A stretch of DNA of 64,000 bases, from the NCBI GenBank assembly GCA_034722275.1, contig JAYENW010000001.1, forward strand, positions 4,418 to 68,417. Reading direction: 5' to 3'. Position 1 is the stretch's first letter. Every line of letters starts with the position of its first letter. The DNA comes from Chloroflexota bacterium. Lineage in GTDB: Bacteria; Chloroflexota; Dehalococcoidia; GIF9; AB-539-J10. The translations under genes and the position numbers were made by a program. This document shows, piece after piece, positions 9,078-48,781 of the stretch. Below the pieces are notes generated by a model, which was not told the DNA's origin, did not search any database, and saw nothing but the letters and a program-made list of their open reading frames with translations.

Positions 9078-9191
9078 TTATCCCTGTCTCTGTTTATGCT
9101 TGGGATTTTCACAGATAACCCTGACCACACCCTTCCTTCTGATGATCTGGCATTTTCTGCAACGTTTCTTAACCGAAGCTGCTACTTTCAT
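9078..9191 (-). CDS. rpmJ: 50S ribosomal protein L36
   Basis: Below ORF-track cutoff; manual minus-strand translation [37 protein letters not shown] with C-x2-C...C-x4-H zinc ribbon; ATG 9189-9191, stop 9078-9080. Confidence 0.9.
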
Positions 9192-9251: not shown

Positions 9252-9470
9252 TTATTTCAGCCGATAGGTAATCCTGCCGCGGCTCAAATCATAGGGAGAG
9301 AGCTCCACTAGAACTCTGTCAGCAGGTAAGATTTTAATATAATGTTTCCTCATTTTGCCCGAAATATGGGCCAGCACGATATGCCCATTACTCAACTCAA
9401 CACGAAACATGGTATTAGGCAAACAGGTAATGACTTTGCCCTCGACTTCTATTCGTTCTTTTTTAGCCAT
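9252..9470 (-). CDS. infA: Translation initiation factor IF-1
   Basis: 72 aa, [31 protein letters not shown]1-like OB fold. Confidence 0.95.
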
Positions 9471-24303: not shown

Positions 24304-25158
24304 TCAGATATGGCTTTGCTCCAGAAGTATGTTATCTATCAATCTTGTCTTGCCTATTTTGACAGCTAGGGAGGCTAGGGCTGGAGGTTTGATTATTTTC
24401 AATTCTTCTAAGGTATTGACATCTACAATGCTGATATAATTGATTTTGGCTAAAGGTTCTTTTTCAATCCGTGAAGTCATCTGGCGGCGAATTTGGTCGG
24501 CATCTTTTTCACCTTGTTGCCACAATTCCTTGGCTAGAGAGAGAGCTTTAAACAGGACTGTAGCCGCCGGGCGCTCTTCAGGATCGAGGTAAGTATTGCG
24601 GCTGCTCATAGCCAGGCCATCGCTTTCTCTCACCGTGGGCACAACCACAATTTCCAAGTCCATGTTGAGGTCAGCAACCATTCTCTTGATAACCATGGAC
24701 TGTTGGGCATCTTTTTGTCCAAAGTAAGCTCTGGTCGGCTGGATGATATTGAATAGTTTACCCACTACTGTGGCTACGCCTCTGAAGTGTCCCGGACGGC
24801 ACGCCCCCTCAAGCTTTGCAGTAATGCCTTCGACATCTATCCAGGTGTTAAACCTTGCAGGATACATCTCTTCTTCAGAAGGAATAAAGACGATGTCTGT
24901 TTTCTCTTGCTCCAGGAGTTTCAAGTCGCGCTTGAGGTCTCGAGGGTAGACAGTGAGATCTTCGCTGGGGGCAAATTGTGTGGGGTTAACAAAGATGCTG
25001 GCTACAACGACACCAGTTTCCGCTCTGGCTTGTTTTACCAGAGCGAGGTGACCATTGTGAAGATAGCCCATGGTGGCTACAAAACCTACTGAACCGCTTA
25101 ACTGCTGCCTTAATTTTCTTATCCCTGAAATTGTCTTTAAAACCTGCATCTTCGCCAT
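24304..25158 (-). CDS. panC: Pantoate--beta-alanine ligase
   Basis: VATMGYLHNGHLAL HIGH-like motif, 284 aa. Confidence 0.9.
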   Translation of the reverse strand: MAKMQVLKTISGIRKLRQQLSGSVGFVATMGYLHNGHLALVKQARAETGVVVASIFVNPTQFAPSEDLTVYPRDLKRDLKLLEQEKTDIVFIPSEEEMYPARFNTWIDVEGITAKLEGACRPGHFRGVATVVGKLFNIIQPTRAYFGQKDAQQSMVIKRMVADLNMDLEIVVVPTVRESDGLAMSSRNTYLDPEERPAATVLFKALSLAKELWQQGEKDADQIRRQMTSRIEKEPLAKINYISIVDVNTLEELKIIKPPALASLAVKIGKTRLIDNILLEQSHI

Positions 25159-25246
25159 TAATCCTCTACTTCTAAAAAGGGACGCCTTATGAGCTTTGTC
25201 TTCAGTAACGGAGGGGGCTAACTTTCATACTGTGAAGCTCTCTTCA

Positions 25247-26089
25247 TCAAGAAAGAGACAAGGTGTCCAGTTCCTTGAGTAGATTTTCATCCATGATGTA
25301 GCTCTGCTTCGTGGTAGGGAAATCAACGGATTTGACTTCAGCCATATAAATTTTGATGGCACTTTGCATTTCCTCAGCTAACTTAGCATATTGCTTGGTG
25401 TGTTTGGGCACGAAGTCGGTGAAGAGGCCTAAAATGTCGCTGATCACTTGAACTTGGCCGTCGCAATCAGGGCCGGCGCCAATGCCAATTGTCGGGATGT
25501 TTGCCTTTTGGCTGATCAGCTTGGACAGAGGTGCTGGTATACATTCCAAAACAATGGAAAATGCGCCAGCTTCCTCCAGGATTTGGGCGTCCAGAAGCAG
25601 TTTTTTAGCCATCTCTGTTGTTTTCCCCTGCACTTTGAACCCGCCTAATTGATATATTGATTGTGGAGTAAGCCCGATGTGCCCCATAACGGGGATTCCG
25701 CAATCAACGATCCTTCTTACTTTTTCAGCAACAACCTCACCCCCCTCCAATTTCACTGCCTGTGCTCCCCCCTCTTGAATAAAGCGCCCCGCATTATATA
25801 GAGCATCGGAAACGCTGGTGTGATAGGTCATGAAAGGCATGTCTCCCACAATTAAGGCTTTTCGGGCACCTCTCACTACAGCTTTGGTGTGATGTAACAT
25901 TTCCTCCATGGTTACCGGGATGGTCGTCTCATATCCCAGGATTACCATGCCGAGGCTATCACCAACTAATATCAAAGGTATACCAGCCTCATCAATCACC
26001 TTGGCAGTGACATAGTCATAAGCAGTGAGCATAGGTATTTTTTCCTTCTTTTGCTTCATCTCTTTTATCTCATTGATGCTGACTCGCAT
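25247..26089 (-). CDS. panB: 3-methyl-2-oxobutanoate hydroxymethyltransferase
   Basis: ...[33 protein letters not shown]... PanB. Confidence 0.9.
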
Positions 26090-26174
26090 AGTATCACCCT
26101 AGCTTTTATTCAGGATTGTTTCGTTACTTCTTTGCTTTGTTTAGAATTTCAACGCACAGTGGCTTACAGGAAGT

Positions 26175-26573
26175 TCAAAAGGACAGTTCGGCTGCTACCA
26201 GGTCTTTCATCCGGGAGTCCTCTTTTAGCTCCAGAATCTCATTTTTACTGTTTACGTAAACCATGGTTGGTATCATGTTCGTCGCTTCATCGTTGGGAAC
26301 CTGACAATAGGACAAGATGATGACTATGTCACCTTTTGCCACCAGTCTGGCAGCAGCGCCATTGATACCGATTACTCCTGAGTTTGCCTCTCCTTCAATA
26401 GTGTAGGTACTGAATCTGGCTCCGTTATTGATGTTTAATACGTCTACCCGCTCAAAAGGTAAAATGTCACTAGCCTCCATGAGGGTTTTGTCGATAGTGA
26501 TGCTGCCTTCATAATCCACATTGACTTCAGTAATCCAGGCTCGGTGAATCTTACTCTTTAACATAACTCTCAT
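26175..26573 (-). CDS. panD: Aspartate 1-decarboxylase
   Basis: [25 protein letters not shown] (self-processing G-S site), 132 aa. Confidence 0.9.
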
Positions 26574-26587
26574 TTTTCCCTCCTTCT

Positions 26588-27445
26588 TTATATTCCAATT
26601 AGAGTCTTTAATTCTTCGGCTTTATTTGCATCAATAGTGCCTTTGGCCAAAGCAATAGGAATAGTCTGAGATGCTAATTCCTTGTAGGTGGTGAGCTTGG
26701 TGGGATCCCTGGCCGCGAGGGCATTCAAGTGCCTGCTTATGGTGCCTATATCTCCACGGGATATAGGTCCTGTGAGGCAGCCAGGTGAGCCAATATTGTC
26801 GATGTTATTTACTGCCCCCTGAAGCAAAGGTAGCAAGGCGTTAGTTGCTCTTGCCGGCGGCACTCCAAAAATTTGCCATAAATCTAAGGCCATCTTAACC
26901 AGGGTTACCAGATAATTAGATACGAAGACAGCGGCTATGTGGTATAGTACCTTATCCTCTGGCTTGAGTTCTACCCAGTTGCCCTTTAACAGTGAAGCAA
27001 ATTCCTTCAGGCTAGATAATAGAGGCTCCTCAGCCTCTAAAGCAAAGGTAGAGCCTGGCAAATTCTTCATAGCCTGTTCGACATTAGCGAAAGTCTGGAG
27101 TGGGTGGAAGGAGCCCACTTTAGCCCCAAATTGCCTGGCCGGTTCTAAGATATCACTGGAATAAGCACCACTACAATGCACTACATTCTGGTCTATGTGC
27201 CATTGAATCTTGTTGGCTGCTTTGGAAATGACGTCATCAGGTGTGGTGATGAAAACTAACTCGGCAACATCAGCCACTTCTTGTGCGCTGTGGTAAATCT
27301 GGCAGCCAGTTACAAGGTTGGCTAAATTTTGTGCTGAGGATAAACTTCGGCTGAACACAGCTATAACTGGGCAGCCTTTTTCAAAGAGCCTTGTTGCTAA
27401 AGCTGTGCCCACCATTCCCGCACCGATGAAGCCAACCTTGTACAT
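26588..27445 (-). CDS. Rossmann-fold NAD(P)-dependent oxidoreductase with DUF2520-like C-terminus; putative alternative ketopantoate reductase (PanG-like)
   Basis: [17 protein letters not shown] dinucleotide-binding fold; sits 14 nt upstream of panD-panB-panC; start taken at ATG 27443-27445 (ORF-track extension runs through a hairpin). Confidence 0.6.
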
Positions 27446-27448
27446 AGT

Positions 27449-27479
27449 AATAAAAAATCCTCTCGGCATAACCGAGAGG
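27449..27479 (-). terminator. GC-rich hairpin + U-tract (intrinsic terminator / RBS-sequestering attenuator candidate)
   Basis: Minus-strand RNA CCUCUCGG-UUAU-GCCGAGAGG followed by AUUUUUUAUU, ending 4 nt before the panG-like ATG; 3' arm contains the GAGAGG SD-like sequence; ~130 nt downstream of surE stop. Confidence 0.5.
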
Positions 27480-27611
27480 ATTTTAAACTGCACTCTTTCT
27501 CCCGTCTCGGTCGTTGCCGATCCAAGCGGAAACTTTATTTATCTTAAATTACACGCTCGCTGCCTTCTAGGTCAACCGCGTTTCTCATCTTAGCATAATT
27601 GGCGTAAATTG

Positions 27612-39477: not shown

Positions 39478-39708
39478 CTACCTCCTTGTTATTTTTCCTG
39501 AATGGATAAAGGAGCGTTGTTTCATTTTGATCCATCTCCCTTCATCAATCCCAATTAAATTGCCGCATTGACACTTAATTTCATTTCCATCTCGAACACT
39601 ATAATCCTCTACTATTCGTTCTTTCCAGCAGTGCGATAGTCGCCCTTTACCAATCTTTATATATTTAAAGACTTTGCCCTTACACCTGGCACACTTTATC
39701 ATTATCAT
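39478..39708 (-). CDS. Small zinc-ribbon protein (hypothetical)
   Basis: 76 aa, CARC...HC...CQC Cys/His pattern; 9 nt upstream of DUF523 gene on same strand. Confidence 0.45.
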   Translation of the reverse strand: MIMIKCARCKGKVFKYIKIGKGRLSHCWKERIVEDYSVRDGNEIKCQCGNLIGIDEGRWIKMKQRSFIHSGKITRR

Positions 39709-40130: not shown

Positions 40131-40394
40131 ATGGCTGAGGATTTTGGCTCCCGAGTGGTCGGGACTATTACCAAGACGAAAGGGGAATGTGCTGTAGGGC
40201 ATAAGGTGGGGGATAAATTTGAGCTACATGGTCGTAGTTCTGATGGGTTATGTGGTTATTTCTATCACAATATATTCCCATATATCATCATGCTGCAATG
40301 CGGTGGAACCTGGCCTGGTAAAGATGGGCTTCCTGAATTCGATTGTCCCGACGTGGCTAATGCCGTAACCATAAGACTTCAGCGAGTGCAGTAA
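40131..40394 (+). CDS. Small Cys-containing protein, TIGR04076-like (function unknown)
   Basis: 87 aa, G.CA.GHKVGD.F...G.C...L.GG.WP...CPD.N pattern; AAGGAGG RBS 8 nt upstream. Confidence 0.5.
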   Translation: MAEDFGSRVVGTITKTKGECAVGHKVGDKFELHGRSSDGLCGYFYHNIFPYIIMLQCGGTWPGKDGLPEFDCPDVANAVTIRLQRVQ

Positions 40395-40589: not shown

Positions 40590-41570
40590 TCAGGTATGAA
40601 ATTCAATAATGTCCCTGTCTTGAAGTACATGCCTTTTGCCCACTCTTTGTCCCTCGTATTTACCCGAGCCCCAGATAACGGCGTACTTCAGCTTGGCGCG
40701 AATGTCTTTGTGGATGTCCTCGGCGGCCTCTTCTACAGTGCTGTCTTTCTTCAGTATCATGGGGTCGCTCAGGTCAACTTTGCTTCCGGGACTTTTGGTG
40801 TAAACCCGAATGATGTCCAAGAGTTCAAAAATTGTCTTTTTAAGCTCTTCCAGCCTGTTGCCTTCTTTGGCTGAAATGGAAATCGTGGGAAATATAGTAG
40901 CATACTGGTAATGCAATATATCCCAATTATTATTTGAACCTTCAAGGTCATCCTTGTTCCCCACGATGAGCATTTTCTTGGGGTAGTTTCCTGGCGTTAT
41001 CTCTCCTATGTCTTTTCGCAATGGCTCTATCCTCGCCTCTCCAAGTTCTCGCAGTGTACTTTCTAACTGGCTCAGTGGCTCCCAAGACAAATCTATTACG
41101 ATGGCAATAAGATCAGCACCTCTCAATGTGTTGGACAGCAGGATTCGCATTTCTTTGTATCCTATGGGAGGTGTGTCTACTAATTGAATCTGGATGTCCT
41201 CAAACCTCATCATCCCGGGCAGGGGAGTTTTAGTAGTGAAAGGGTAGGCAGCTATTGTGGTGAGCGCCTCAGTCAATGCTACCAATATCTGTGATTTGCC
41301 GCTGCTGGGAGGGCCTATTAACATTACCTGCCCGGCGCCTTCCCTTTTGATGTAGAATCCTGCCCTTCTGGCTGTGGCATATTTCCTTTCCGCCTCTTGT
41401 GAAAATTTGGCAATCTTCCGTCTCAGTCCAGCGTGGAGCTTGTCAGTGCCTTTGTGTCTGGGCATAATGGCGAGCATGGCTTCCAGCGCCCTGATTTTCT
41501 CCTCGGGGTCCTTAGCTGTACGATAGCGTTTTTCAGCTTCGAAATACTGCGGCGGCAAATTTGCTGGCAT
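40590..41570 (-). CDS. TGS-domain P-loop GTPase of DRG/Rbg1-like type (Obg superfamily)
   Basis: G1 GPPSSGKS, G2 YPFTT, G3 DTPP, G4 NKDD; N-terminal helical region and C-terminal IRVYTKSPG...TGS domain mirror eukaryotic/archaeal DRG. Confidence 0.65.
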   Translation of the reverse strand: MPANLPPQYFEAEKRYRTAKDPEEKIRALEAMLAIMPRHKGTDKLHAGLRRKIAKFSQEAERKYATARRAGFYIKREGAGQVMLIGPPSSGKSQILVALTEALTTIAAYPFTTKTPLPGMMRFEDIQIQLVDTPPIGYKEMRILLSNTLRGADLIAIVIDLSWEPLSQLESTLRELGEARIEPLRKDIGEITPGNYPKKMLIVGNKDDLEGSNNNWDILHYQYATIFPTISISAKEGNRLEELKKTIFELLDIIRVYTKSPGSKVDLSDPMILKKDSTVEEAAEDIHKDIRAKLKYAVIWGSGKYEGQRVGKRHVLQDRDIIEFHT

Positions 41571-41728: not shown

Positions 41729-43009
41729 ATGAATCCAATACGAGCTACTGATGATGCATGCAAGGAGCCATTTCAGTTTTTTCATTATGGTTGGGTTATT
41801 GTCATCGGCGGTTTTCTTTGCCAGGCGTGCTTTGGTGTCAGTCGGCATTTATACCCCTATGTTCTCCCTACCATGGAAGTTGAACTGAATCTGCTTCATG
41901 AGCAATCGGGGAGTATTGCCTCTGCTTATTTCATTGGCTACGCCATTATGACCTTTGTCTGGGGAATTCTTACGGATAGGATTGGGTCGCGAAGATGCAT
42001 GCTGATGGGGCAGTGCGTTCTCCTTGCTGGTCTAACAGGCATGGGCTTTATAGCAACGCTCATACTCGCCTCTTTGTGTTACTTTCTCTGTGGTGCCGGT
42101 GCCGCTGGATTATTCGTGCCCTTGGCTCCCCTTATCTCACGATGGTTTGGGAAGAAGCGGAGAGGCACTGCACTGGGTATCGCTATGGCTGGAACCGGCC
42201 TAGTAACCTTGGTGCTGAGTTTCATCATCCCGGGGTTGTTGGCCAGTTATTCATGGAGATGGTCTTGGTGGATTGGTGCTGTCTTTGTTCTCGCCATGGT
42301 CATCATATGTTGGTTTTTATTGGTGGATAGTCCTGGAGAAAAACACTTGACTCCCATGGGAATAGATAAAGGAATCCCAGCAGGACAGGATGTGATGGGA
42401 AACTACCAGCAGACAAAGCCCAGAGTGAGCATGAAGCGTATTTTGAAGCGAGGAGTGCTGTGGAACTTGGCTGGAATTTACTTTACGCGTGCCATTGGCT
42501 ATACAATTTTCATGACGTTTGCTGTGCGCTATCTGGAAGAGATTGGGTGGCAAGAAGAACTGGCAGCGGCTGTTTTCGGCGTATGGGGAGCGTTACAAAT
42601 ACCTTCTCCGGTAGTCTGGGGTGTTATCGCCGATCATCTACCTAAGAAATATGCCTTTGCTATAGCATTGGCGCTGGATGCGGGAGGCGTGTTTATTTTC
42701 CTCTCTGGCAGCGCGGTGGGCTGCTATTTGGGAGCAGCTATTATTGGATTTGCCGATGTTGGCGTTCCCACGATAATGGCAGCATCCATGGCGGATTATT
42801 TCGAGCCGGCAATCATCGGCACTGCCTTAGGATTTGTAACCCTCATATTTGGAATCGGGTGTATAGTGGCTCCTAGCATAGGGGGATATCTGGGAGATAT
42901 GACAGGAACGCTACACACTGCTATCATGTTAAGTTTGGGAGCGATTAGCGCCGCACTTATTCTTGCGCTGCTGTTGAAGAAACCATCCACGAAGCCTCTA
43001 TCTCACTGA
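41729..43009 (+). CDS. MFS transporter
   Basis: 426 aa, 12 TM, GILTDRIGSRR motif; convergent with hyuB. Confidence 0.8.
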   Translation: MNPIRATDDACKEPFQFFHYGWVIVIGGFLCQACFGVSRHLYPYVLPTMEVELNLLHEQSGSIASAYFIGYAIMTFVWGILTDRIGSRRCMLMGQCVLLAGLTGMGFIATLILASLCYFLCGAGAAGLFVPLAPLISRWFGKKRRGTALGIAMAGTGLVTLVLSFIIPGLLASYSWRWSWWIGAVFVLAMVIICWFLLVDSPGEKHLTPMGIDKGIPAGQDVMGNYQQTKPRVSMKRILKRGVLWNLAGIYFTRAIGYTIFMTFAVRYLEEIGWQEELAAAVFGVWGALQIPSPVVWGVIADHLPKKYAFAIALALDAGGVFIFLSGSAVGCYLGAAIIGFADVGVPTIMAASMADYFEPAIIGTALGFVTLIFGIGCIVAPSIGGYLGDMTGTLHTAIMLSLGAISAALILALLLKKPSTKPLSH

Positions 43010-43045: not shown

Positions 43046-44770
43046 TCAAGACTTCTTCAGGGAGTTGCGCAATTTCTCAGTAGCTGCGGCATCCACTTTC
43101 ATGGTCTTGGGGTTGATGATGACACCATAGTCCTCTTTGGCTTTTTCAAGAGTCACATATTCACTGATAACATCGCTCTCCACGAATTCTGGCTCGCGCT
43201 CCAGAGGGTCTCCGTATCCTCCACCGCCGGCGGCATCAATGGTCACTACATCACCCGGTCCAAACTGTGTTAATCCATAGGGATCGCCAGGTTTATCATT
43301 CACCATGAAATGCCCTTTCATACTTGGTTTGCCGCCGAATAGACCTTCGGCGGGATAGCGATATCTTCCTGCCTGGATTCCCAGATTGACCGGCGGAGTG
43401 GGAGCATATTCATCGTCCGGTGCTCTGAATACGACTCGCCTTCCCAATCCTCCCTTCATCTTGCCTGCACCTCCTGAATCAGGAATGAGCTCTCTCCTTT
43501 CTACAATTAACGGAGTGTCACTTTCAAAGATTTCCACTGGTGTGTTAGCGCCATTGGCTGGGAAGATGACATCATAATAGCCATCATACTTGTGGCTGGC
43601 ACCCAAACCGCCACCTCTGATTATCACGCAATGCCAGGGGTTTCCATCATGACGCTTGCCATAAAAAACGTTCATAGCTGCTGGTGTACCACCGCTGCCC
43701 GCTATAACTTGGTTTGGCACCGCTGGAGACAATGCTCGATAAATCATCTCAGTCATGAAATGTCCTATTTGCATTCGAGCAGCAACAGCAGCGGGGAACT
43801 TGCAATTGACCACGGTCCCCTCAGGGGCCTTCAAGGTTATCGGTCGTGCCGCGCCATCATTGTTGGGCAACTCCGGGTCAAAGATACTCTTCATAGCCAT
43901 AAAGACATAGGCATAGGTGAAGTTGTAAACTACATTACCTCCCCAATCCACCTGAGGTGACGATCCAGCGAGGTCAACTATGATATCGCTTCCTTTCACC
44001 TCCACGGCCATTTTGATGTGTATATCTTCTTTTCCTTCGGGTTGTTCAATAATTCCCTCGTAAGGGTAAACGCCATCAGGTACTTTGGCAATGGAGTCCC
44101 TTATGCTTTTTTCCGTGCGCCCGATAATTTCATCGGCCAGGTCATCCAGGGTATCTAGTCCAGTATCTTCCAGCATCTCCGCTATCTTCTGTGCGCACAC
44201 ATGATTGGCTGCGATTTGCGAGCGAATATCACCGATGACCTCATCTGGCGTGCGAACGTTCCAGCGGATCATTTCAAAAACGGCTTCATTCGGGATGCCG
44301 CCGTCATAAAGTTTTACCAACGGAATAAACAAGCCATCTTCAAAGACATCATGATTGTCGGATGCTACTCGTCCACCTATATCTGAGTGGTGGAAGACAC
44401 ACGCTGTAAAAGCTACTACCTTATCCTTATAGAAAATTGGGCTCATTACACAGACGTCGTTGAGATGACCGGCAAGAAGCCAGGGATCGTTGGTGATGAA
44501 AATATCACCTGGCTTGTAACTTTCCAGGGGGAACTTACTAACGATATTCTTGATTCCTATTGCCATCGCCCCAGATTGCCCTGGTGTGGCAAGTGTTCCC
44601 TGGGCTAATTCTCGTCCTTTTTCATCGGTGAACATGCAGGTGTAATCGTGGGCATCACGCGTTAGGCTGGAAAATGCCGTCCGAGCTACAGACGCGTCAG
44701 ACTCATCCACGATGGAAATTAATCTGCGCCAGAGGATCTCCAGTGTTATAGGGTCAAATTTCTGCGTCAT
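43046..44770 (-). CDS. hyuB: Hydantoinase B/oxoprolinase family protein (HyuB/OplB-like)
   Basis: 574 aa, ...KPGDIFITNDPW... Hydantoinase_B family pattern; 2 nt after hyuA. Confidence 0.85.
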   Translation of the reverse strand: MTQKFDPITLEILWRRLISIVDESDASVARTAFSSLTRDAHDYTCMFTDEKGRELAQGTLATPGQSGAMAIGIKNIVSKFPLESYKPGDIFITNDPWLLAGHLNDVCVMSPIFYKDKVVAFTACVFHHSDIGGRVASDNHDVFEDGLFIPLVKLYDGGIPNEAVFEMIRWNVRTPDEVIGDIRSQIAANHVCAQKIAEMLEDTGLDTLDDLADEIIGRTEKSIRDSIAKVPDGVYPYEGIIEQPEGKEDIHIKMAVEVKGSDIIVDLAGSSPQVDWGGNVVYNFTYAYVFMAMKSIFDPELPNNDGAARPITLKAPEGTVVNCKFPAAVAARMQIGHFMTEMIYRALSPAVPNQVIAGSGGTPAAMNVFYGKRHDGNPWHCVIIRGGGLGASHKYDGYYDVIFPANGANTPVEIFESDTPLIVERRELIPDSGGAGKMKGGLGRRVVFRAPDDEYAPTPPVNLGIQAGRYRYPAEGLFGGKPSMKGHFMVNDKPGDPYGLTQFGPGDVVTIDAAGGGGYGDPLEREPEFVESDVISEYVTLEKAKEDYGVIINPKTMKVDAAATEKLRNSLKKS

Positions 44771-44772
44771 AT

Positions 44773-46866
44773 TTATACCTCCTTGAAGCTAATCCATACA
44801 AATCCATATTCGTCTACAGAAATAGAAGTATCTTCCCCGGCGATGACAGTTGATTCTCTTTCCTCGATAATAGCGGGGCCTTCGAATGTTGCTCCCGGGA
44901 AGAGGCTATAACGGTCGTACACAGTATAAGGGATATAGTCTTTGGCAAGTGGTGAATAAGCCGAACGCTGCCCTTTAATTGTATCGTTGAGAGAGGCTGC
45001 TTTCTTTGCGATTTTGGGTAATTGCAGGAGGCGACGCGGGAGGCTAACCCTTACTCTAAAGCTTACAAATTCCACCTGGGACTCGGGATAGGTTCTTCCG
45101 TACAGGTTCTTATATACCTCGTCAAAGCGATTGCGTACCTCTTCCCTTGTTATCTGGGAGAAGTCTTTTCTGGGAATGGAGACGCTGGTTTCCGAGCCTT
45201 GCCCTATGAAGCGCAGATCCAGCGACCTTTCGTATACAATATTTTCCTGGCCTCCAGTCCTTTCCAGAGTTCTGGCACCATCTGCTTCTATTTCCTGGAA
45301 TATTTTCTCGATTTCAGACAAGTCTGCATCTTCAAGACTGACCTTATGGCTTCTCACTAAATCGAAAGCTCTGGGAGCGGTGAAGAAACCCAGGGCTGAC
45401 CCCACACCAGCTATAGGTGGAACGAGAATCTTAGGGGCTCCCAGCTTCTTGGTTAATCCATAGGCGTGAACCGGGCCGGCTCCGCCAAAAGCGGCAATAG
45501 TGACGATCTTTGGGTTCCCTCCTTTTTCGGCGATGTGCGTCTTGGCTGCTGCAGCCATCGTCTCGTTGATGACGTCATGAATACCCCAGGCAGCCTGTGT
45601 GAGCGATACATCCAAGGGTTTGGCGATCTGTTCCTCGATGCCCTGCCTGGCTCCCTCCTTATCGAGCTTCATCTCTCCACCCAGGAAGTAGTTTTCATCC
45701 AGGTAGCCCAATATCAGGTCAGCATCAGTCACTCCAGGGCCTGTGCCGCCTCTGGCATAACAAATGGGGCCGGGGTCAGCTCCAGAGCTTTCCGGGCCTA
45801 CCTGCAGGGTTCCCATTTTGCTTATTTTGGCGATGCTGCCACCGCCAGCTCCAATCTCCATCAAGTCAACCACTGGCACCTGTATAGTGAGCCCACTTCC
45901 CTTCATAAACCTTTGCACACGGCCTACCTCAAAAGTTGGCACCACTCCAGCTACTCCTTTTTGAATCAGACAGGATTTGGCTGTGGTTCCTCCCATGTCA
46001 AAGCAGAAGATGTCTTTAATGTTGAACATTTTGCCATAGTACTGACCGGCAATAACTGCTGCTGTTGGCCCGGATTCAATAACTCTTACCGGGAACTCTT
46101 CAGCAGTCTCGGCTGAGGTAATTCCACCGCTAGCAAGCATAATAAAAAGCTTGCCTGTGGACCCCAGTGACTTTAGGCGATCATCTAGCTTGGCCAAATA
46201 TTTTCCCGTTAATGGTTTAACATAGGCATTGGTCGCTGTCGTGCTCGTTCTTTCGTATTCCCTTATCTGGGGCAGGACTTCATAAGAGATTGAAATGGAC
46301 ATGTCGGGTGCTTCTTTTAAGGTGATGTCCTTAAGCATAAGTTCATGAACAGGGTTCTCATAGGAATTTAAGAGGCAAACTGCTATCGAGTTAACCCCCA
46401 TATCAATTAATTTATGTACGATCTCTTTTGCTTCTTCTGGGTTCAATGGCTTCAGGACCGTGCCATCGCTGCGAAGTCTTTCATTTACTTCCAGGCGAAG
46501 TGGTCTCGGGATAAGTGGTACCGGGTACTCGGAAAAAATGTCATAAGGAGCATATCGTATTTCCCGTCCCAATTCCAGGATATCTCTAAATCCTTTGGTG
46601 GTAATTAAACCTGCTTTGGCCCCTTTCCTTTCGATGATGGCATTGATCACCAGAGTAGTGCCGTGTATCACTTCATCTAATTCCTCAACGAAGCCAGGGG
46701 TCTTCTTGGTTAATGCCACGACTCCTTCTTCCACGGCATCTGAGGGGTCTTTGGGAGTGGTTAAACACTTATGGATTTTTATTTCCCCGGTTTTATCATT
46801 TAGCAAGACGAAATCGGTGAAAGTGCCTCCAATGTCACACCCAAGCCGATAAATTTTATCAGACAT
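44773..46866 (-). CDS. hyuA: Hydantoinase A/oxoprolinase family protein (HyuA/OplA-like)
   Basis: 697 aa, N-terminal YRLGCDIGGTFTDFVL and internal DMGGTTAKS ASKHA motifs; AGGAGG RBS. Confidence 0.85.
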   Translation of the reverse strand: MSDKIYRLGCDIGGTFTDFVLLNDKTGEIKIHKCLTTPKDPSDAVEEGVVALTKKTPGFVEELDEVIHGTTLVINAIIERKGAKAGLITTKGFRDILELGREIRYAPYDIFSEYPVPLIPRPLRLEVNERLRSDGTVLKPLNPEEAKEIVHKLIDMGVNSIAVCLLNSYENPVHELMLKDITLKEAPDMSISISYEVLPQIREYERTSTTATNAYVKPLTGKYLAKLDDRLKSLGSTGKLFIMLASGGITSAETAEEFPVRVIESGPTAAVIAGQYYGKMFNIKDIFCFDMGGTTAKSCLIQKGVAGVVPTFEVGRVQRFMKGSGLTIQVPVVDLMEIGAGGGSIAKISKMGTLQVGPESSGADPGPICYARGGTGPGVTDADLILGYLDENYFLGGEMKLDKEGARQGIEEQIAKPLDVSLTQAAWGIHDVINETMAAAAKTHIAEKGGNPKIVTIAAFGGAGPVHAYGLTKKLGAPKILVPPIAGVGSALGFFTAPRAFDLVRSHKVSLEDADLSEIEKIFQEIEADGARTLERTGGQENIVYERSLDLRFIGQGSETSVSIPRKDFSQITREEVRNRFDEVYKNLYGRTYPESQVEFVSFRVRVSLPRRLLQLPKIAKKAASLNDTIKGQRSAYSPLAKDYIPYTVYDRYSLFPGATFEGPAIIEERESTVIAGEDTSISVDEYGFVWISFKEV

Positions 46867-46960: not shown

Positions 46961-48781
46961 TTAATCATAGATGGTCTTACATTCCAGTAACCTTACTGGT
47001 ATCCTCACCTCCCTTTCTATATCAAGATATACTCTTCCGGTCAGGTCTCTTGCCCAGTTTCCTAAAGTGAAAGGCGATGATGGTATTATTATTAAATCGG
47101 GCTCGGGTTGCCGCTTCAGGTAGTTTTTAATGTGGTCAATGAAGTCTTGAACTACAAGGAGATCACCCATGAATACATTGCCACCGAAATAATTATTCCG
47201 AGGAACCTCAATGTTTATTCTGAGTTCACTTGAGCTGAATAAATGGGATTCTCTGAGACACTGCTCAAACGTCGGCTTCATCAATTCAGAGGAAAGGAAA
47301 AGAATATTCCTGGCCTTCTCTTTGTCTATTATCTCCTTTAGCCTCTCAATGTAACTCAACCTTAGTCCGGTGTCCATGAAGATTACTCCGAGGTGCCGAT
47401 CAAATTCTCTGGAGAAGGGATAGTCGGAGTTATCTAAATCTACTGTCAGGTCAATTTCTTGGCTTTCCCTCTGGACGGTGAAACTAGCTGTTTTTTGCGT
47501 GCTCCTTTGTAACATATAAAGCATGTCTCTGGCTTGTGGTCTTGTCTTTATCTGGATGTTATTTATTCTACTGATAATGTCCCCCCTTTTAAAGCCGCTG
47601 CGAGCGACGGGAGAATTCCTGACTAATCCTATTATTCTCGGTAAGTTCTTGCACTTTTCATACAAATTTTCCTCATACATGCTGGGCATGGCTACAACAG
47701 GACATTCTATTTCTTCCCTCAATTGTCTTATGATGGAAATGCAGGCTTCCCAGACCTCGTCTAGGTCAAAAATTTCTTGAGATGAAAACCATTTGGAATA
47801 GCCGGGGAGATTAACCTCAATGAGATGTGCGCCACAATTATCGGCGTAGATTGCCGTTTTGTGGAAGTCTTGACACATCTCATTTATTGAATCCACAGGC
47901 CAGGGAACGATAACGATGGCATAGGGGATACCTTTGTCCTGTAATAATTTTGGGGCAGAAATAGCGATGTCAGGTTCGTTGTCCCTCATCAAATTTTTGC
48001 GACGCTCAGGAGATGAGCTATTTAAGGAAAGATAGATATATATCGGCTTGAGATTTACCAGCTCGCTTATTGTCTCGGGCGTTAGATTCTTGCCATTGGT
48101 GGTTATTCTTAGCGGGCTTGAAGTTCTTTCCCTCAAAGAGCAGAGAATTTCTCTGAAATGGGGATGAGCTAGGAAATCGTAACTTAGAGGTGGGTTGGGG
48201 AAAAGGCTCATACCTTTATCAGGAGAGAAGTAGCGGAGCCTTGTTTTAATTTCATCGCGTTCATCTTTGGCAGTCCTTTTTGGGTGTCTTAAACCGAGAG
48301 ACGACGGATTCCCCTTATTGTAACAAAAGGCGCAGTCACAATTACACCGAGATGCGGCATATTCCAAGATCTCACTGGGGTCGCAAGCATCAGGAATAAG
48401 CCAATCAGAAAGATTTTTTAATTTGAACCCGTCAACGTGGATGACCTCTCCTTTGCTTTCCAGCTCTACAACGGATAACAGGCCTTCAAGTTGTCTCTTG
48501 ATGAATTCTATTCTTGGTTCATATATAGAAGTGCTATCTGAGAGAGGTGATGAGCAACCTTCTCTAGGATATCTCAGGTCATGTACAGATATCCTGTCTG
48601 AGAGCAGTTTGAACCCATCAGGGTCTGTCTCTCTGTTGTTCTTTGTCAGGATGATGAGGTCTAACAGGTTTTGCAGTTGGTTTCTGACCAGTTCTAAGAG
48701 AGCATCATTGTACGGCTGCTCTTTTTTTTCTTGTAGTTCATAATGGAAGTCATGTTCTCTCATTGAACTAATAAAGCTCAT
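46961..48781 (-). CDS. Radical SAM protein with internal PDZ-like domain (unusual architecture)
   Basis: 606 aa; CNCDCAFC (CX3CX2C) at ~res 148-155; PDZ-like GLVRNSPVARSGFKRGDIISRINNIQI ~res 385-415; extra N- and C-terminal regions. Confidence 0.7.
   Translation of the reverse strand: MSFISSMREHDFHYELQEKKEQPYNDALLELVRNQLQNLLDLIILTKNNRETDPDGFKLLSDRISVHDLRYPREGCSSPLSDSTSIYEPRIEFIKRQLEGLLSVVELESKGEVIHVDGFKLKNLSDWLIPDACDPSEILEYAASRCNCDCAFCYNKGNPSSLGLRHPKRTAKDERDEIKTRLRYFSPDKGMSLFPNPPLSYDFLAHPHFREILCSLRERTSSPLRITTNGKNLTPETISELVNLKPIYIYLSLNSSSPERRKNLMRDNEPDIAISAPKLLQDKGIPYAIVIVPWPVDSINEMCQDFHKTAIYADNCGAHLIEVNLPGYSKWFSSQEIFDLDEVWEACISIIRQLREEIECPVVAMPSMYEENLYEKCKNLPRIIGLVRNSPVARSGFKRGDIISRINNIQIKTRPQARDMLYMLQRSTQKTASFTVQRESQEIDLTVDLDNSDYPFSREFDRHLGVIFMDTGLRLSYIERLKEIIDKEKARNILFLSSELMKPTFEQCLRESHLFSSSELRINIEVPRNNYFGGNVFMGDLLVVQDFIDHIKNYLKRQPEPDLIIIPSSPFTLGNWARDLTGRVYLDIEREVRIPVRLLECKTIYD

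Follow-up and report, generated by a model that had tools for sequence, protein, structure and literature searches.

Does a bacterium possess a GTPase of the DRG type as a gene of its own? Reviews state that bacteria have no DRG (PMC8629797, PMC4263083), and Obg is treated as its functional counterpart in bacteria, which is the base of a recent cross-domain argument (2026 preprint, 10.64898/2026.05.13.724932). The question is raised by one gene in a 64,000-nucleotide stretch of contig JAYENW010000001.1 from a Chloroflexota bacterium (assembly GCA_034722275.1); this whole stretch is called the window below. A sequence-only reading of the window had taken the gene product for a DRG/Rbg1-type GTPase with a TGS domain. 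We consider it likely that the gene is a native, chromosomal member of a large bacterial sister branch of the DRG (Rbg) subfamily within the Obg superfamily. The branch has the domain order helix-turn-helix (HTH), G domain and TGS, lacks the S5D2L domain, has a remodelled switch II and would represent a putative translation factor.

The open reading frame (ORF) is intact in the ORF list, with an ATG start, 326 codons and a stop codon, and it reads MPANLPPQYFEAEKRY...IIEFHT. The product is 100% identical to an NCBI protein from a metagenome-assembled genome (MAG; 202-kb contig), which is named "TGS domain-containing protein [Chloroflexota bacterium]", and 326 residues is the modal length of the family. 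Pfam assigns MMR_HSR1 to residues 81-178 (1.5e-15) and TGS to residues 254-326 (54.3 bits, 1.4e-14); the C-terminal TGS domain read earlier from IRVYTKSPG...IIEF is thus real. The AlphaFold2 model has a mean predicted local distance difference test score (pLDDT) of 85.7 and a predicted template modelling score (pTM) of 0.73. Three N-terminal helices (residues 7-18, 22-35 and 40-69) are followed by a G domain (81-251) and then by a β-rich TGS domain (253-325), in which pLDDT values are mostly above 90. The basic helix KLHAGLRRKIAKF is present in the N-terminal helical segment, as had been noted, and the HTH region aligns to that of Rbg2 and Rbg1 (residues 4-60). Since the N-terminus is formed by three helices, the glycine-rich Obg fold is absent from the model, which agrees with the earlier reading.

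The closest characterised relatives of this protein (the query) are yeast Rbg1/Rbg2 and the archaeal DRGs by sequence, by profile and by predicted fold, and Obg, YchF, NOG1 and HflX score far lower. A single-sequence phmmer search against the PDB retrieved Rbg2 at 3.5e-32 and Rbg1 at 9e-28, compared to 3e-8 for Obg; the structure of the human DRG1 TGS domain (2eki) was matched at 9e-13. With a family profile built from 72 sequences, Rbg2 scored 167 bits and Rbg1 155 bits, versus 86 for MTG2/Obg, 66 for NOG1, 48 for 1wxq and 39 for YchF. Foldseek, started from the AlphaFold2 model, returned Rbg1 (1.3e-20, TM-score 0.65) and Rbg2 (5e-14), with ribosome-bound Rbg1 (7rr5) among the top matches. 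The next best was the NOG1-like PH1320 (TM-score 0.40), NOG1 and Obg being at about 0.4. We are highly confident of the homology to DRG and of the architecture assignment.

The earlier statement that the protein matches the DRG architecture is about three-quarters true: HTH, G domain and TGS are all there, but S5D2L is absent and G3 and switch II are non-canonical. S5D2L corresponds to the N-terminal half of PF16897 (MMR_HSR1_Xtn) and was searched for in the query without success. This Pfam model scores 17.7 bits (cut-off 35.2), and its match is limited to positions 57-105, the G4/G5 half; in the family profile alignment, Rbg2 residues ~182-242 lack a counterpart. At the corresponding site, the query has a linker with two short strands, which is modelled with lower confidence (mean pLDDT about 69 for residues 181-190). 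An exhaustive search of 1.84 billion representatives yielded 521 relatives at E ≤ 1e-30. Among the best 150 of these, the spacing between G3 and G4 is bimodal, being 73-74 residues in the class of the query (73 in the query itself) and 127-132 residues in 11 long forms. All five long forms that were scanned pass MMR_HSR1_Xtn (49-74 bits), and all named ones are archaeal (Thermococcus species, Bathyarchaeia). Because the long-form profile matches Rbg1 and Rbg2 end to end (about 277 bits), the long forms are considered bona fide archaeal DRGs. The query shares 36-44% identity over the full length with archaeal DRGs from Thermococcus and Bathyarchaeia.

Two variants at this site were observed. 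Seven relatives of 350-361 residues (P0137, P0169, P0189, P0192, P0203, P0242 and P0263) have 20-30 extra residues exactly where S5D2L would be located, and these are low-complexity, acidic or Ala/Pro-rich. A 392-residue long form (P0217) has S5D2L, yet its G3 is already DTPP, so that it looks like an intermediate state.

The four G motifs listed in the sequence-only reading (GPPSSGKS, YPFTT, DTPP and NKDD) are present, but it was overlooked that DTPP is not a canonical G3 (DxxG). The glycine of the G3 motif DxxG is universally conserved. In the short forms, its position is occupied by Pro in 339 of 367 sequences and by Ala or Ser in the remainder, whereas Gly does not occur at all (0/367). 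In addition, a 5-residue deletion removes from the short forms the segment "EGAxxGKGxG", which is kept by archaeal DRG, yeast Rbg and Obg. A proline at G3 is unable to donate a backbone NH to the gamma-phosphate, so that switch II coupling is probably altered; as judged from the motifs, nucleotide sensing or hydrolysis is probably coupled otherwise than in canonical DRGs. The other G motifs are well-conserved: G86, G91, K92 and S93 of G1 are invariant, position 89 (in the K+-loop) is Asn in 126 of 127 representatives and in all 120 profile hits, T113 of G2 is invariant or almost so in all sets examined, and (N/T)KxD at G4 is kept throughout the family.

The family is most conserved in the HTH-apex motif and the TGS domain. 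H39, K40, G41 and T42 at the HTH apex are invariant, and the motif aligns with "QKNKAT" of yeast Rbg. The conserved HTH-apex lysine of DRG is hydroxylated by JMJD7 (PMC8629797), and, from the alignment, the equivalent residue in the query would be K40. There is also a conserved N-terminal tail, which hardly varies from one bacterial phylum to another; the 72-sequence alignment (A2) shows no variation at P2, A3, N4, L5, P7 and Y9. Archaeal DRGs have this tail as MPTN(V/L), and yeast Rbg1/2 are devoid of it, as their alignment to the query begins only at query residue ~24. The tail may be a ribosome-contacting peptide.

DRG-family members had been called rare in bacteria, which does not hold for this branch. 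About 8000 clusters at 90% identity scored in the family; many are labelled "ribosome-interacting GTPase 1" by JGI, and their NCBI names are generic only. A scan of GTDB species genomes gave at least 600 rows, which include archaeal DRGs because the PKHKGT motif is common to both. Among the best 80 species-genome loci, 79 are labelled bacterial, and more than 15 named bacterial lineages are represented: Chloroflexota (Dehalococcoidia, Anaerolineae), Desulfobacterota, Nitrospirota, Nitrospinota, Acidobacteriota (Aminicenantes, Terriglobia), Zixibacteria, Aerophobetes, Poribacteria, Hydrothermota, Ignavibacteria, Binatia, Vulcanimicrobiota and Clostridia, among others. The top 120 orthologues listed are 72-88% identical to the query and nearly all have 326 residues; those with a name are from Dehalococcoidia or Chloroflexota. 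In the cluster look-ups of 30 representatives, no cultured bacterial host was named, MAGs and Thermococcus being among the named sources. The gene itself is within the compositional range of the window (GC z = 0.16, GC3 z = 1.41, synonymous-codon log-likelihood z = 0.31, compared to 42 other window genes), and the gene order around it is the same in an independent Logan assembly.

A neighbour-joining (NJ) tree was computed with 100 bootstraps and rooted on Obg. A single clade, set apart from Obg, comprises all DRG-like sequences (87% bootstrap). When two atypical short forms are excluded, the short forms are split from the archaeal and yeast DRGs (89% bootstrap). The archaeal long forms have no clade of their own but are paraphyletic around the short one. 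The cluster of one of the two excluded sequences (P0152) takes its name from a Euryarchaeota MAG. Mean identities are 40% between short forms, 41% between long forms and 37% between short and long forms. This tree places the short forms but does not polarise transfer versus descent. The suggestion of an under-studied bacterial DRG lineage was essentially right.

Several other accounts of identity and origin were weighed against this assignment. That the protein is an ordinary bacterial GTPase (Obg, YchF, HflX or EngA), or that the contig is chimeric or contaminated, is hardly credible. The models listed at the top of the NCBIfam search are indeed the YchF-related PRK09602 (64 bits) and ObgE (54 bits), but these are far below their cut-offs (387 and 406, respectively). 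No NCBIfam family was passed, the Obg equivalog models reaching 38-54 bits (cut-offs 280-406) and the YchF model TIGR00092 reaching 17.5 bits (cut-off 279). In the PDB profile search, Rbg1/2 lead by about 80 bits, and the model shows neither the Obg fold nor the coiled-coil insert of YchF. The Obg, YchF, HflX and EngA identities were rejected on these scores and on the Foldseek result, and the preference of the sequence-only reading for DRG over these standard families has stood up. Chimerism was rejected as well, given the native composition and the identical gene order in the independent assembly; homologues are also found on bacterial contigs of up to 1.4-1.7 Mb. Lateral acquisition, which had been suggested, has two versions. 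A recent transfer from an archaeon or a eukaryote into this Chloroflexota genome would fit the classical description of DRG as archaeal and eukaryotic only (PMC8629797, PMC4263083) and the fact that the nearest S5D2L-bearing relatives are archaeal. No sign of such an event was found: composition and codon usage are native, the 120 closest matches are orthologues of near-equal length with bacterial names where named, the bacterial short forms are a clade of their own, and mobile-element genes do not flank the gene. Because the diversity of the short forms is as deep as the sampled archaeal diversity and the composition is native, a recent transfer is discounted as very unlikely. The other version, which concerns the origin only, is a single ancient transfer of a DRG gene from archaea to bacteria, after which S5D2L was lost, switch II was remodelled and the gene spread between phyla. 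It competes with descent from a DRG-like gene that the last common ancestor already had. With the Obg outgroup, the prokaryotic short and long forms group together (89%), with the archaeal long forms paraphyletic around the short clade. The first S5D2L strand also survives as a remnant in the short forms ("ARIEPL" in the query, compared to "GIRLNK" in Rbg), P0217 combines S5D2L with DTPP, and the bacterial distribution looks patchy, the named matches being mostly from uncultured anaerobic lineages. On the other side, the mean identities fit an equally old bacterial branch, and the tree cannot be polarised by NJ when the archaeal sampling is biased. We regard the ancient transfer as a serious possibility, with its chances somewhat short of even.

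For the function, the essential parts of yeast Rbg1 are the best guide. Rbg1 function requires HTH and TGS, and deletion of S5D2L impairs Rbg1 only partly (PMC8629797). As the two required parts are kept and are the most conserved ones in the family, a stand-alone, ribosome-associated factor that binds guanine nucleotides is favoured. The protein would bind guanine nucleotide and Mg2+ through the intact G1, G2 and G4 motifs, dock on the GTPase-associated centre of the ribosome via HTH, G domain and TGS as do yeast Rbg1/Rbg2, and, as a stand-alone translation factor, act on 70S ribosomes that have paused or stalled. The contact to the A-site tRNA, which is given by S5D2L in eukaryotes, would be missing from the bacterial protein, and the proline in G3 would remove the backbone NH that normally senses the gamma-phosphate. 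We infer nucleotide binding, ribosome binding and a translation role from homology; for the ribosome role, which is argued by analogy, we see the chances as evenly balanced. A different function is conceivable, namely that of a non-ribosomal pseudo-GTPase with a nucleotide-sensing or regulatory role, e.g. a TGS-mediated tRNA or alarmone sensor or a DNA-repair factor. The TGS domains of RelA/SpoT and ThrRS are reported to bind tRNA or other ligands. This proposal would also fit the replacement of the G3 glycine by proline, the shortened switch II and the location of uvrC, which in 18 of 81 loci lies upstream of the gene on the same strand at a distance of 1-17 bp. However, G1, G2 and G4 are strictly conserved, the ribosome-contacting parts that are essential in Rbg1 (HTH apex and TGS) are the most conserved ones, and the linkage to uvrC is seen only in a subset of the loci, mostly from Dehalococcoidales, and does not occur in this window. 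We consider the pseudo-GTPase unlikely. A bolder version of the ribosome-associated factor is that the short forms constitute an ancient branch of DRG that binds the ribosome and has a mechanism distinct from the rest, in which Pro-G3 and the truncated switch II would make sensing or hydrolysis dependent on the ribosome or a partner, and in which the MPANLxPxY tail would probe a ribosomal functional site. We consider this version improbable. If it were true, a DRG-type factor would predate the split between bacteria and archaea, and Obg would not be the sole bacterial counterpart of DRG.

Some observations weigh against a bacterial DRG branch with a role in translation. Two hallmarks of DRG according to the reviews, S5D2L on the one hand and canonical G3 with a glycine-rich switch II on the other, were tested and are both absent; for this reason, the query is not classed as a canonical DRG. 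With proline in G3, the protein might hydrolyse GTP weakly or not at all, or have a role other than that of a switch. Position 89 of G1 is occupied by Ser in the query, as it is in 16 of the 120 relatives nearest to it. Neither a conserved DFRP-like partner nor a conserved translation gene was found beside the gene among the neighbouring ORFs of at least 70 residues in 81 loci. The tree is by NJ only, has limited outgroups, and its archaeal sequences are those nearest to the query. Finally, the support for the function consists of homology, architecture and motifs.

The features of the gene and of its product are listed in Table 1.

Table 1. Features of the DRG-like GTPase gene, with positions in the window and the evidence for each assignment.
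Feature	Positions	Strand	Evidence
Complete coding sequence of the DRG-like GTPase	40590..41570	-	ORF list; identical NCBI MAG protein
N-terminal tail MPANLPPQY, residues 1-9	41544..41570	-	Alignment conservation
N-terminal helical (HTH) domain, residues 7-69, with basic helix KLHAGLRRKIAKF	41364..41552	-	AlphaFold2 helices; alignment to the Rbg2/Rbg1 HTH
HTH-apex motif PRHKGT, residues 37-42 (family consensus PKHKGT)	41445..41462	-	Alignment conservation
G domain, residues 78-252	40815..41339	-	Pfam MMR_HSR1; alpha/beta fold in AlphaFold2 model; Foldseek superposition on the Rbg1 G domain
G1/P-loop GPPSSGKS, residues 86-93	41292..41315	-	Motif conservation
G2/switch I YPFTT, residues 109-113	41232..41246	-	Motif conservation
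Non-canonical G3 DTPP, residues 132-135, followed by a shortened switch II	41166..41177	-	Motif comparison
Short linker/hairpin, residues 179-199, at the DRG S5D2L site (~56 residues there)	40974..41036	-	G3-to-G4 spacing; profile alignment
G4 NKDD, residues 205-208, guanine-specificity motif	40947..40958	-	Motif conservation
C-terminal TGS domain, residues 254-326	40593..40811	-	Pfam TGS; match to the human DRG1 TGS structure 2eki

The gene stands alone in the window. On one side, an MFS transporter gene (41729-43009, plus strand) is oriented divergently to it, and on the other, a TIGR04076 gene (40131-40394, plus strand) is convergent; farther neighbours code for 2-thiouracil desulfurase, an alpha/beta hydrolase, PFK and hydantoinase A/B (43046-46866, minus strand). 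The window is bacterial, as read earlier: bacterial-type L2, S7, L17, RpoA, SecY, EF-G, adenylate kinase and methionine aminopeptidase pass their NCBIfam cut-offs, and ORFs reading as bL36 (9078-9191) and IF-1 (9252-9470) were identified by sequence, not by profile. The proposed ribosomal-protein context is, however, not real at the operon level, as the str/S10/spc/alpha cluster (about 6.3-24.1 kb) is roughly 16 kb away, with unrelated operons between. A scan for promoters and terminators around the gene gave nothing above shuffled expectation on the minus strand, and the Rfam and tRNA scans revealed nothing connected with it.

Across the 81 loci, uvrC is the only recurrent neighbour, and its adjacency looks like a lineage-specific operon. 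It was found at loci L012, L014, L016-L018, L020-L022, L024-L029, L031, L034, L036 and L041. Locus L024 is on a 5.6-kb contig (JAGHAR010000032.1) that is labelled Candidatus Iainarchaeum archaeon. On this contig, a short-form DRG-like gene comes after a uvrC of bacterial type, with the synteny seen in Dehalococcoidales; it is probably a mis-binned bacterial contig rather than archaeal DNA from the DPANN group.

Three further loci in the window were recorded. An Rfam pan motif (RF01749, 44.9 bits; 27498-27580, minus strand) is directly upstream of a pantothenate operon (DUF2520 oxidoreductase-panD-panB-panC; 24304-27493, minus strand), which is an ordinary context. A 76-residue ORF with CxxC...CxC pairs (39478-39708, minus strand) is zinc-ribbon-like, has no match in Pfam or NCBIfam, and is located between the 2-thiouracil desulfurase and TIGR04076 genes. 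A 606-residue protein with radical SAM, PDZ and DUF512 domains (46961-48781, minus strand) is encoded upstream of the hydantoinase A/B pair.

What is already known about this family is the similarity at the database level (the JGI/KEGG-style name "ribosome-interacting GTPase 1"). What is new is a bacterial DRG-related subfamily without S5D2L and with a DxPP G3, which is native to and widespread in bacteria; no paper on a bacterial DRG was found in the searched literature. As far as this window is concerned, the gene is an ordinary one, native, single-copy and of the housekeeping type. Beyond it, the family represents a naturally minimal DRG (HTH, G domain and TGS, apparently without DFRP) in which the core function on the ribosome could be dissected, and it provides a natural Gly-to-Pro variant of G3 for the study of switch II. 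It also matters for the question of whether the last common ancestor had a DRG-type factor or whether such a factor was passed from one domain to another.

Compared to eukaryotic DRG1/DRG2 (yeast Rbg1/Rbg2; PDB 4a9a, 7rr5 and 7nrc), the query has the same order of HTH, G domain and TGS, the lysine motif at the HTH apex, the motifs G1, G2 and G4, and the TGS core "RVYTK.PG". It differs by the lack of S5D2L (about 56-60 residues), by DxPP at G3 (DLPG in Rbg), by the deletion of the glycine-rich switch II segment and by the additional, strictly conserved N-terminal tail of about 20 residues (MPANLPPQY...). It is also without an evident DFRP partner and is from a bacterial host with 70S ribosomes. 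The archaeal DRGs (e.g. a 388-residue "GTP-binding protein" from Thermococcus, and those from Bathyarchaeia) share with it the MP(A/T)N tail, PKHKGT, G1, G2, G4 and TGS. Unlike the query, they have S5D2L, their G3 is E-x-P-(A/G), mostly ExPA in the nearest ones, and most retain the glycine-rich switch II. Bacterial Obg/CgtA has a G domain of the same superfamily and is a ribosome-associated GTPase. The query is, however, devoid of the glycine-rich N-terminal Obg fold, the profile score of Obg is ~80 bits below that of Rbg, and HTH and TGS, which the query has, are absent from bacterial Obg (10.64898/2026.05.13.724932). YchF/OLA1 and the Ygr210-type proteins (PRK09602) likewise have an Obg-family G domain followed by a C-terminal TGS-like domain. 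Unlike them, the query has no helical/coiled-coil insert, and its G4 is NKxD, so that it is predicted to be guanine-specific.

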